4,701 nucleotides of DNA, taken from a virus. Its lineage: Duplodnaviria; Heunggongvirae; Uroviricota; Caudoviricetes. The translations under genes were made by a program, and so were the position numbers. How positions within the stretch are numbered: position 1 is the stretch's first letter; each line of letters opens with the position of its first letter. The notes under the pieces were generated by a model that was not told where the DNA came from, searched no databases, and saw nothing but the letters and a program-made list of their open reading frames with translations. Shown piece by piece: positions 3,105 through 4,701 of the stretch. The stretch lies in IMG/VR virus record IMGVR_UViG_2713896783_000005, one strand, 5' to 3'.

Positions 3105-3328
3105 AAATCCTGTATCAGGATTACGGCCCGGTGGGGCAGGTGGTTATCAGCAGTACTGTAATGGAGTTTCGGAAGCATAACCGTGTGGTGGATGCTGTGC
3201 TGTTAACCTGTCCGGGGATATCGGCGAGTCGTGCAGGTGTGTTTATTATGAAGACGAAATTATATGGCAGTAAGGCGTGGATAAAGAAGGCGTATCGTGT
3301 AGCGTTGCAGGAGGTTAACAGTGAGTGA
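3101..3328 (+). CDS. Hypothetical small basic protein (75 aa)
   Basis: GTG 3101 preceded by AGGAGG (3087-3092) at 8 nt and overlapping the upstream stop as GTGA (3101-3104); about 11 K/R vs 5 D/E; no family recognised. Confidence 0.5.
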   Translation: MKILYQDYGPVGQVVISSTVMEFRKHNRVVDAVLLTCPGISASRAGVFIMKTKLYGSKAWIKKAYRVALQEVNSE

Positions 3329-3632
3329 AATTAAAGAAATGCCGGTAGTTCGTGACGGATATGGCTACTGGACACATCCTGAATATGAAAAATTCTGTGA
3401 TGGTCGGGAATATATTTCAACGGAAGAGTTTAACGCCTGGATGGAGGAAAATAATCTTCAATACGTCCTCTGCTTCAGAGATGAAGGATGTGCTGACCTT
3501 GATGCGTGTGATGCTGATATTTCTGCATGGGAACCGGAACGACCAGAGGGCGATGGCTGGTTTATTGGTTCCATTCATGATACGGAAGATGGCCCGGTTT
3601 GTGTCTGGTTGCGAAATAAGGCTGAAGCATAA
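3321..3632 (+). CDS. Hypothetical strongly acidic protein (103 aa)
   Basis: GTG 3321 preceded by AGGAGG (3309-3314) at 6 nt; overlaps the upstream gene by 8 nt; about 25 D/E vs 8 K/R by my count, Trp/Cys-containing; stop TAA 3630-3632. Confidence 0.6.
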   Translation: MSEIKEMPVVRDGYGYWTHPEYEKFCDGREYISTEEFNAWMEENNLQYVLCFRDEGCADLDACDADISAWEPERPEGDGWFIGSIHDTEDGPVCVWLRNKAEA

Positions 3633-3731
3633 AGGCGATAAACCAACTAACAACTAAATACTGAAGATTTAAATCAGAAACGATTTTTATTAAATCCTTA
3701 ACCGGAGGGATTCCTGCACCCTCAGAACATC

Positions 3732-3759
3732 AGGAGGCCGCCCGAAAGGGCGGTAAGAA
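3732..3759 (+). promoter_or_regulatory. Structured translation-initiation region: AGGAGG, then a CCGCCC-GAAA-GGGCGG hairpin, then 6 nt to ATG 3760
   Basis: Perfect 6-bp GC stem (3738-3743 with 3748-3753) closed by a GAAA tetraloop; consensus SD AGGAGG at 3732-3737 lies 22 nt from the ATG in linear sequence but about 6 nt if the hairpin forms. Confidence 0.35.
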
Positions 3760-3978
3760 ATGAAACATTATTTAGAAAAAAATTACCCACGAAAGAGCAG
3801 AACAACAGAGTTTCTGTTTTTCATTCTGTTTATAGTGTTGATGATACCGATATCCCCGCTATTACTGGTCTGGATAATTGGAAGGACATTTGAACCAGTT
3901 ATTGAGCTATATACCGATGTGACATGGGAATCATTCAGCGCACTGCACAATAAAATTAATCCGTATAAGGAAAACTGA
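3760..3978 (+). CDS. Small single-pass membrane protein (72 aa), AT-rich moron-like gene
   Basis: ATG 3760; hydrophobic segment FLFFILFIVLMIPISPLLLVWIIG flanked by a basic N-terminus (KNYPRKSR); rare codons (ata, aga, agg, cta, tta) and low GC contrast with neighbours; preceded by a 127-bp AT-rich non-coding stretch. Confidence 0.6.
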   Translation: MKHYLEKNYPRKSRTTEFLFFILFIVLMIPISPLLLVWIIGRTFEPVIELYTDVTWESFSALHNKINPYKEN

Positions 3979-3979
3979 T

Positions 3980-4537
3980 ATGAGCACTATTACCAGAGAA
4001 CGCGCGGAGATTAAATCATACATCACAGGCTTCCTGAGCGACTCGGCGCACGATAACAAGTCTTCAGACAGCCTGCTGGCTAATGTGTTTCGTATCGCGC
4101 TGGCATCACTGGAAGCAGAGCCGATAGCAATGGTAGTGCCTGATGAAATGGATTTGCTTACCTGCCATCTCGACGGTGTAACTAAAACATATGCTGATGG
4201 CTGGAACGCCTGCCGCGTCGCCATGCTTCAGGCCGGAAACTTTCGGGAAAATAAGAATTCGTCAACCAACAATTTTCGGGAAATCTCGGAAACGTCAACC
4301 AGATCTCCGATAACTCTGGATGGCTGGATAAGCTGTACTGAGCGAATGCCTGAAAAGAGCCAGAACGTGCTTATTTCGATGAATATCGATAGCGAGGCTG
4401 GGCCATTAATATATTCCGCACGCTATCTCGGAGGCACGTTCCGGCGCGGAGGTATAGCAGTTAGTCCGGGTAATGATCTTAGGCAAGCAACCCACTGGAT
4501 GTCGCTACCAGAACCGCCGCAGGAGGTGAATCAATGA
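3980..4537 (+). CDS. Prophage protein with DUF551-like C-terminal domain
   Basis: ATG 3980 one nt after the upstream stop, with AAGGA (3967-3971) upstream; C-terminal segment DGWISCTERMPEKSQNVLISM...ATHWMSLPEPP matches my recollection of the DUF551 signature (W...LP...HWMPLPEPP). Stop TGA 4535-4537. Confidence 0.7.
   Translation: MSTITRERAEIKSYITGFLSDSAHDNKSSDSLLANVFRIALASLEAEPIAMVVPDEMDLLTCHLDGVTKTYADGWNACRVAMLQAGNFRENKNSSTNNFREISETSTRSPITLDGWISCTERMPEKSQNVLISMNIDSEAGPLIYSARYLGGTFRRGGIAVSPGNDLRQATHWMSLPEPPQEVNQ
4237..4302 (+). repeat. In-frame imperfect 33-bp tandem duplication inside the DUF551-like gene (encodes NFRENKNSSTN / NFREISETSTR)
   Basis: TTTCGGGAAA at 4241-4250 and 4274-4283, and CGTCAACCA at 4260-4268 and 4293-4301, both 33 bp apart; located at the junction between the N-terminal region and the DUF551-like domain. 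Confidence 0.55.
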
Positions 4538-4617
4538 CCTGGCCTGAAGCATTCACAACGGTAGGAATTGCGATGGCGGTGGCGCTGGTGGTGTATTCGA
4601 TTTGCCGCTGGGGATAA
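4534..4617 (+). CDS. Candidate 27-aa hydrophobic microprotein (MTWPEAFTTVGIAMAVALVVYSICRWG), not in the ORF track
   Basis: ATG 4534 overlaps the upstream stop as ATGA; consensus AGGAGG at 4521-4526 sits 7 nt upstream; single hydrophobic stretch long enough for a short TM helix; stop TAA 4615-4617. Confidence 0.35.
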   Translation: MTWPEAFTTVGIAMAVALVVYSICRWG

Positions 4618-4701
4618 AAACGGTTTGCGGGAAAAGGATAGTTAAGTAGAATTGCTGCGGGTGCTTGAGGCTATCTGCCTCGGGCATGAACACCAACGGC
4701 A

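Follow-up and report, generated by a model that had tools for sequence, protein, structure and literature searches.

The enterobacterial regulators MgtS, AcrZ, PmrR, MgrB, and KdpF are single-pass inner-membrane proteins of about 27–50 amino acids that act by binding a larger membrane protein, while type I toxins such as TisB, DinQ, and ShoB are comparable in size to the 27-residue peptide considered below. Temperate phages, for their part, carry prophage membrane proteins that exclude superinfecting phages, as do HK97 gp15, P22 SieA, and lambda/Rac SieB. Here, we analyzed a 4,701-nucleotide (nt) stretch of Caudoviricetes DNA (IMG/VR record IMGVR_UViG_2713896783_000005; hereafter the window), and in particular a small open reading frame (ORF) at positions 4534–4617 whose start overlaps the end of a gene for a DUF551 domain-containing protein. 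This ORF is very probably a real protein-coding gene for a 27-residue single-helix membrane peptide, as comparison of homologous sequences suggests. We further consider it probable that the gene is independently mobile and that its product is a single-pass inner-membrane microprotein of lambdoid prophages, Shiga toxin (Stx)-converting and others. The ORF and its start signals are as follows.

4534–4617, plus strand: small ORF with an ATG start, 27 codons, and a TAA stop at 4615–4617; product MTWPEAFTTVGIAMAVALVVYSICRWG
4521–4526, plus strand: Shine-Dalgarno sequence AGGAGG, inside the last codons of the DUF551 gene (which ends ..PPQEVNQ, stop)
4534–4537, plus strand: ATGA start-stop overlap, in which the DUF551 stop TGA (4535–4537) has three bases in common with the ATG

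Both signals had been pointed out in an earlier, sequence-only reading of the window, and both were found in place: a spacer of 7 nt (tgaatca) separates AGGAGG from ATG 4534, and the ATGA overlap is the arrangement expected for translational coupling to the DUF551 gene. The same reading had called this a very strong initiation context for a chance ORF. Here the motif itself stands, but not its improbability, as the window has a single AGGAGG-N5-9-ATG where 0.28 would be expected, and 48 of 200 shuffles contain one or more. Moreover, 19 ORFs of at least 20 amino acids overlap positions 3500–4701, and so, judged from the window only, chance could account for the small ORF and its Shine-Dalgarno site. 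What raises it above chance is the comparison with homologous loci.

A tblastn search of GenBank phages with the peptide gave 94 records, 92 of them covering at least 80% of the query, with identities of 100, 89, 81, 67, 63, and 59%; the variants MTWPEAFANVGTVMAVVLVVYSICRWR (933W), MNWPEAFTAVGVAIAVAFILYSLFRWG (VT1-Sakai), and MSWPDAIVTLGMVFAAAFVVYSICRWG (PhiR12_1) all have 27 codons. We then drew together 124 homologous sites from these phage loci and two IMG/VR scans, one using the N-terminal codons and the other anchored on the DUF551 3′ end, the latter without an intact ORF as a selection criterion. The 27-codon frame is intact at 115 of the 124 sites, in 35 protein and 57 DNA versions from E. 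coli (Escherichia coli), Shigella, and Salmonella prophages, and the remaining sites include in-frame forms of shorter length along with single copies interrupted at codon 26 (a stop) and at codon 3 (TAG). In the DUF551-anchored sample, the ORF came next in about 62 cases and was intact in 59. Length variants, including P0072 and P0079, are in-frame deletions or expansions, and among the variants in protein databases there are in-frame expansions of (Ala-Met)n, extensions by stop loss that add basic tails, and rare frameshifts.

Selection was gauged with pairwise Nei-Gojobori estimates between lineages over codons 8–27, the part left free by the search pattern. The ratio of nonsynonymous to synonymous differences per site (pN/pS) was 0.25–0.8 between lineages, with pS reaching 0.81 and Fisher p values down to 1e-4 for divergent lineage pairs, and substitutions were biased toward synonymous or hydrophobic-for-hydrophobic changes. 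As for the other frames, every lineage carries stops in the +1 frame, and pN/pS in the +2 frame was about 0.7–11, at least 1 for most pairs. The start signals are kept as well, since an ATG with GGAGG or GAGG 6–10 nt upstream and the ATGA overlap recur behind unrelated upstream genes (gtGGAGGatgttttacgATGA and gagcaGAAGGtgaatcaATGA are two such Shine-Dalgarno examples). In most homologous loci the overlapping TGA ends an upstream ORF of at least 100 codons, whichever gene that is, and in the VT1-Sakai type the overlap is retained via an additional ATG (aaATGATGAAT). The sequence-only reading had proposed checking the ORF and its ribosome-binding site for conservation with a synonymous-substitution test, and had named stops or frameshifts in otherwise conserved regions as the result that would speak against a gene. 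When these checks were run, the ATGA and Shine-Dalgarno sequence proved to be kept in nearly all homologues, and stops and frameshifts only occasional. Together, the conserved frame and 27-codon length, pN below pS, and in-frame insertions and deletions support a genuine protein-coding ORF.

The predicted product bears out the description of essentially one hydrophobic helix, which is kept among the homologues. A transmembrane helix is predicted at about residues 6–24 (nt 4549–4605), preceded by an N-terminal cap (M-x-W-P-E-A), holding G11xxxA15 within it, and followed by a C-terminal C-R-W-G. Among the 35 protein variants, W3 (35/35), G11 (34/35), A15 (33/35), C24 (33/35), R25 (33/35), and W26 (34/35) are near-invariant, and the helix interior swaps among V, I, L, A, M, and F. 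By the positive-inside rule, the short acidic N-terminus (MTWPE) would lie outside and the basic C-terminus (CRWG) in the cytoplasm, so that the product is predicted to be an N-out/C-in single-pass inner-membrane peptide. It resembles MgtS, AcrZ, PmrR, MgrB, and KdpF in its one hydrophobic helix, charged juxtamembrane end, small-xxx-small motifs, and escape from annotation. It differs from them in being phage-borne and encoded by a terminal coupled cistron, and no sequence relationship to them was found. KdpF itself was rejected as a relative, with TIGR02115 scoring 14.7 bits against a cut-off of 26.85 and nothing in Pfam above threshold.

Rather than belonging to a fixed set of genes, the small ORF is best described, from the loci compared, as a portable cistron that closes early accessory operons. 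The flanking DNA switches precisely at the ATGA on one side and the stop codon on the other, as mosaic breakpoints, and at least four unrelated upstream gene ends precede the ORF, including DUF551 (..PPQEVNQ, stop), a protein without a Pfam domain (..ISVEDVLR, stop), 933W L0139 (..NIEQKVNQ, stop), and others. Downstream there follows the hok promoter (as here and in 933W), one of at least five different GC-rich hairpins with a U-tract, or a DUF4222 gene and then xis/int. The sequence-only reading had grouped the small ORF with the DUF551 gene and a DUF4014 membrane protein gene in a three-gene coupled module behind an AT-rich leader. This grouping did not survive the comparison: of 95 loci, 56 have a DUF551 end immediately before the ORF, and only 26 have DUF4014 in the 2.5 kb upstream (the latter gene accompanies 1 of 33 DUF551 loci that lack the small ORF; these loci are not independent). 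The DUF551 end elsewhere also precedes several other genes in place of the small ORF. Nor did the leader fare better, for a consensus promoter and terminator scan of 3600–4701 gave no promoter-like site in it. In 933W (2295–2846, compared with window positions 4500–4617), we observed an additional gene, L0139, between a DUF551-type end and the small ORF. The junction ..(Q/K)EVNQ, stop / GGTGAATCAATGA closes L0139, as though this gene had entered at a linker open to reuse.

In VT1-Sakai and PhiR12_1, the gene order is DUF551, small ORF, DUF4222, and xis/int, which places the ORF in the exo-xis region, at its distal end past Ea22-like or DUF551 genes. This region is early-transcribed, non-essential, and mosaic, and papers on it describe Ea22, a DUF551-bearing Ea22 variant, and other ORFs. 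In the review of the region, the word "transmembrane" occurs nowhere and no small or unannotated ORF is mentioned. The locus analyzed here differs in two respects: the described exo-xis proteins are soluble, and the small ORF lies on the replication/nin side, between the replication genes (O/P) and RusA/Q (in 933W, it is near attR).

A query of 101 nt taken around the ORF matched at 3304 places in 1727 of the 5426 complete E. coli genomes, about a third, with up to 7 per genome and 164 places on plasmids, and among the matches listed the upstream gene alone was the annotated feature under the match. RefSeq, through its Prokaryotic Genome Annotation Pipeline (PGAP), has no feature at 4534–4617, nor one for the ORF at any locus inspected. 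The earlier description of the ORF as unannotated therefore holds for RefSeq/PGAP, though not quite for GenBank, where the exact 27-residue sequence is deposited in a few records as "hypothetical protein FORC28_2400" and "bacteriophage protein". A homologue search of protein databases with a 40-residue query, an in-frame extension of the peptide, found 5′-extended entries named "hypothetical protein" or, at contig ends, "DUF551 domain-containing protein, partial". One cluster with 121-residue DUF551 proteins that suggested a fusion was rejected, the sequences showing it to be a clustering artefact from partial entries. In a set of one genome per species, the core family was confined to Escherichia, Shigella, and two tiny contigs (431 and 369 bases) assigned to Xanthomonas pisi and Acinetobacter idrijaensis; both carry E. 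coli-type sequence and look like contamination. Protein databases extend the family to E. albertii and a few Salmonella entries. No copy was found by tblastn in five lambdoid or cryptic prophages of K-12 MG1655 (DLP12, e14, Rac, Qin, and CPS-53), the best E value being 0.13 for short fragments. The microprotein gene is thus widespread and missed by standard annotation, a useful but unsurprising kind of finding, and the sole reason for the terminal cistron having been missed is its length of 84 nt.

Several observations weigh against a functional gene of this kind. Disrupted copies do occur, with the TAG at codon 3 in Shigella phage POCJ13, the codon-26 stop at locus L207, and a frameshift at locus L139, which came from the DUF551-anchored set. 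Purifying selection is moderate, and close pairs are individually non-significant. The N-terminal-codon pattern is a source of bias in that it fixes codons 1–7 of many sequences, though this is mitigated by the analysis of codons 8–27 and by the DUF551-anchored sample. The peptide sequence is absent from the supplements of two translatome (ribosome profiling) studies of enterohaemorrhagic E. coli (EHEC). The published EHEC (Sakai) ribosome-profiling catalogue, in the part available, lists only ORFs of at least 93 bp, among which an 84-nt ORF would apparently be undetectable. A literature search with the peptide string likewise gave no match. Finally, Pfam, NCBIfam, PHROGs, and PADLOC yielded no homologue with a known function and no family for the core peptide or for 20 distant relatives, only sub-threshold compositional matches (DUF883_C glycine zipper, E = 0.04; KdpF, 0.024; phrog_4612, 0.019).

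The genes and elements adjoining the small ORF in the window are listed below.

3760–3978, plus strand: DUF4014 membrane protein gene, 72 amino acids (Pfam PF13198, E = 1e-24), its stop 1 nt before the DUF551 ATG
3980–4537, plus strand: DUF551 gene, 185 amino acids with a C-terminal DUF551 (Pfam PF04448, E = 5.3e-20; RefSeq "DUF551 domain-containing protein")
4618–4658, plus strand: 41-nt spacer from the small-ORF stop to the hok mRNA 5′ end
4659–4701, plus strand: start of the hok mRNA leader (Rfam RF01794, 113.5 bits, E = 1.9e-26, aligned from model position 1)

Positions 3640–4701 are 100% identical to E. coli O157:H7 chromosomes, and in the O157:H7 locus (L001) model position 1 of the hok element corresponds to 7020 (window position 4659), with the element continuing to 7344. 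The hok coding sequence lies beyond the window end, a Hok/Gef coding sequence is annotated in the O157:H7 locus, and sokW, mokW, and hokW are annotated in 933W; the window therefore ends inside a hokW/sokW-type type I toxin-antitoxin locus. The sequence-only reading had overlooked this locus, whose hok mRNA starts 41 nt past the ORF stop. A presumed hok promoter, TTGCGG-16 nt-TAGAAT at about 4625–4652, is proposed from its position only and was not flagged by the consensus promoter scan. The same scan found no terminator-like site between the small ORF and the hok mRNA start, and read-through transcripts would therefore carry a 5′-extended hok leader. The site directly upstream of hok/sok is one of several contexts of the small ORF, with no functional requirement, and 53 of 109 loci have hok in the 600 nt past the ORF.

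Genes for prophage replication, encoding a DnaT-like/O-type protein, P, and DUF1627, lie further upstream, and just beyond the window on the 3′ side lie the Hok/Gef toxin gene, a YgiW-like gene, DUF968, RusA, DUF1133, and the Q-region. Within the O-like (DnaT-like) replication gene, direct repeats of the "tgtcacga" type cluster at 400–420, 680–730, and 950–1000 and look like origin iterons. Near them, 50 N at 421–470 separate near-duplicates (200–420 resembles 471–690), which looks like an assembly gap or junction and not biology; IS1203 adjoins the region in some strains. The DUF4014 gene has its AGGAGG at 3732–3737, 22 nt from ATG 3760, and in between is a stable GAAA-tetraloop hairpin (ccgccc-gaaa-gggcgg, 3738–3753; −16.4 kcal/mol, z = −4.4), the folding of which would place the Shine-Dalgarno sequence about 6 nt from the start codon. 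Split ribosome-binding sites are known for T4 genes 38 and 25, and this hairpin-spaced arrangement resembles them. When positions 3697–5485 of L001 were set beside the K-12 cryptic prophage Qin, the O157 prophage with the cassette was seen to adjoin rspB, the same site as that of Qin, which likewise has a hok (hokD) and a DUF968 gene (ydfU) in corresponding order. We also noticed E. coli lambdoid sequence of about 91% identity, the small-ORF region included, in phage vB_Apl-pPE4 (PP818812.1), a record placed under Actinobacillus pleuropneumoniae, which points to either an odd host assignment or a contaminant.

Regarding mechanism, the small ORF would be the final cistron translated from an early accessory operon, with initiation at ATG 4534 by ribosomes that end the upstream gene or are recruited by AGGAGG; the initiation region is not unusually structured (z = −0.8). 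Once inserted, and with lower confidence, the peptide may pack helix to helix against a membrane protein of the host or of the phage, via its G11xxxA15 face and its juxtamembrane YSICRW end. Modulation of such a partner, again proposed with lower confidence, would benefit phage or lysogen, for instance during takeover of the host or through the exclusion of other phages. For the latter there is a plausible functional analogy with HK97 gp15, SieA, and SieB, which are likewise moron-like accessory genes of temperate phages with inner-membrane products. Those proteins, however, are much larger and their promoters are usually active in the lysogen, and neither sequence similarity to superinfection-exclusion proteins nor a PADLOC match was seen. 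A holin or other lysis-cassette protein was rejected, given that the neighbours here and in distant relatives are early, regulatory, or replication genes.

The adjacency to hok/sok and the tiny hydrophobic helix carried by a prophage also recall type I toxins (Hok/Gef, TisB, DinQ, ShoB, and Ibs), and a membrane-damaging peptide of this sort could act as a prophage addiction or abortive-infection element. Besides its 27-residue single helix, this idea can draw on the proximity of hok/sok in about half of the loci counted. Yet the small ORF lacks its own promoter, a long structured leader, and an antisense RNA, the only nearby Rfam match being hok/sok itself, and it is equally present without hok. 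No similarity to the Hok family was found in Pfam (E up to 1) and no match in PADLOC. Moreover, its initiation region, which is not unusually structured, has a consensus Shine-Dalgarno sequence coupled to the upstream gene, so that any expression of the operon would yield the peptide, contrary to the way type I toxins are controlled. We thus regard a pore-forming toxin role as unlikely, and the addiction or abortive-infection version of it as quite improbable; because the regulatory hallmarks of type I toxins are all missing and the peptide would be made whenever the operon is on, a regulatory small membrane protein is more likely. Somewhat less implausible than a toxin, though still doubtful, is that translation matters and the peptide does not, the ORF serving as a terminal spacer cistron against Rho-dependent polarity or modulating a terminator hairpin or hok read-through. 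In keeping with this, its start is always coupled to an upstream stop, a GC-rich hairpin and U-run lie about 5–20 nt past its stop in at least five independent contexts, and about half of the loci have the hok promoter next, 41 nt before the hok mRNA start. A mere spacer would, however, sit poorly with a fixed 27-codon length, with the retention of W3, G11, A15, Y21, C24, R25, and W26 while third positions are near saturation, and with a helix kept in distant relatives that have unrelated flanks.

Short conserved junctions at gene boundaries are common in mosaic lambdoid phages, and the junction GGTGAATCAATGA recurs behind different genes. Given also that the ORF and Shine-Dalgarno site fall within chance in the window, the segment might be conserved as non-coding DNA or RNA, for instance as a linker for recombination between phage modules or a control part of hok/sok, and be open in one frame by chance. 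Set against this are a codon-position bias and pN below pS confined to the small-ORF frame, in-frame insertions and deletions, and 59–67% protein identity in lineages with near-saturated synonymous sites. The segment is also present without hok, and no structured-RNA signal lies over it, all of which leaves a non-coding element very improbable. Least credible of all is that −1 ribosomal frameshifting near the stop adds the helix, as a C-terminal membrane anchor, to a fraction of the upstream protein. The small-ORF frame does extend at least 13 codons back from the ATG without a stop, and longer database products (P0101, P0104, and P0094) run into the peptide. However, the upstream genes are mutually unrelated, a slippery heptamer (X XXY YYZ) is neither present nor conserved before the overlap (..CAGGAGGTGAATCAATGA..), and the conserved feature is instead an ATG with a properly spaced Shine-Dalgarno sequence. 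The fusions themselves are rare cluster representatives, consistent with deletions. One of them, P0101, is a 143-residue Ea22-like coiled-coil protein fused in frame and ending ..MSWPDAFAIAGVAMSIALIVFAICRWG, and such products may be deletions that tether an exo-xis protein to the membrane. The spacer, non-coding-linker, and frameshift-extension readings are therefore each disfavoured relative to a gene for a single-pass membrane microprotein.

This gene may also have relatives outside the enterobacteria. Scanning the fetched loci for the pattern M-x-W-P-E-A-[I/M], with the ATGA not forced, gave 126 matches. Under a length limit of 45 amino acids, 35 of these (28 distinct) are ORFs of 20–37 amino acids with residues 7–22 almost all hydrophobic, where we estimate that random sequence, at 0.8% per match, would give about 1. 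Residue 2 is N, S, or T in most of the 28, which mostly also show an ATGA overlap with a substantial upstream ORF, and their contigs are from phages of 30–70% GC. No family match to these WPEA-helix peptides was found in PHROGs or Pfam. Similarly, 150 ORFs flanking the distant relatives showed no recurring neighbour in PHROGs, only an early or lysogeny context with CII-like, Ant, integrase, and DNA polymerase genes among them. We suggest, tentatively, that a much wider and so far uncatalogued class of microproteins exists in temperate phages of hosts of 30–70% GC, the 27-residue peptide being its enterobacterial branch. The class would be defined by an M-[NST]-W-P-[ED]-A cap, one transmembrane helix, a length of about 24–37 amino acids, and a start codon overlapping the stop of the early gene before it.

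As a class, small membrane proteins are recognized yet badly under-annotated, and this peptide is carried by up to seven prophages in a single EHEC genome. The accessory regions of Stx phages (exo-xis and nin-like) are poorly understood, and they influence the lysis-lysogeny decision and hence toxin release. If production of the peptide and a membrane partner were shown, it would be a new player in Stx-phage biology. If the WPEA-helix peptides are homologous, they would represent a general phage strategy, and a class of such breadth, if true, would point to a common and conserved bacterial membrane target, for instance the insertion, division, or transport machinery, that is manipulated early in infection by unrelated phages.

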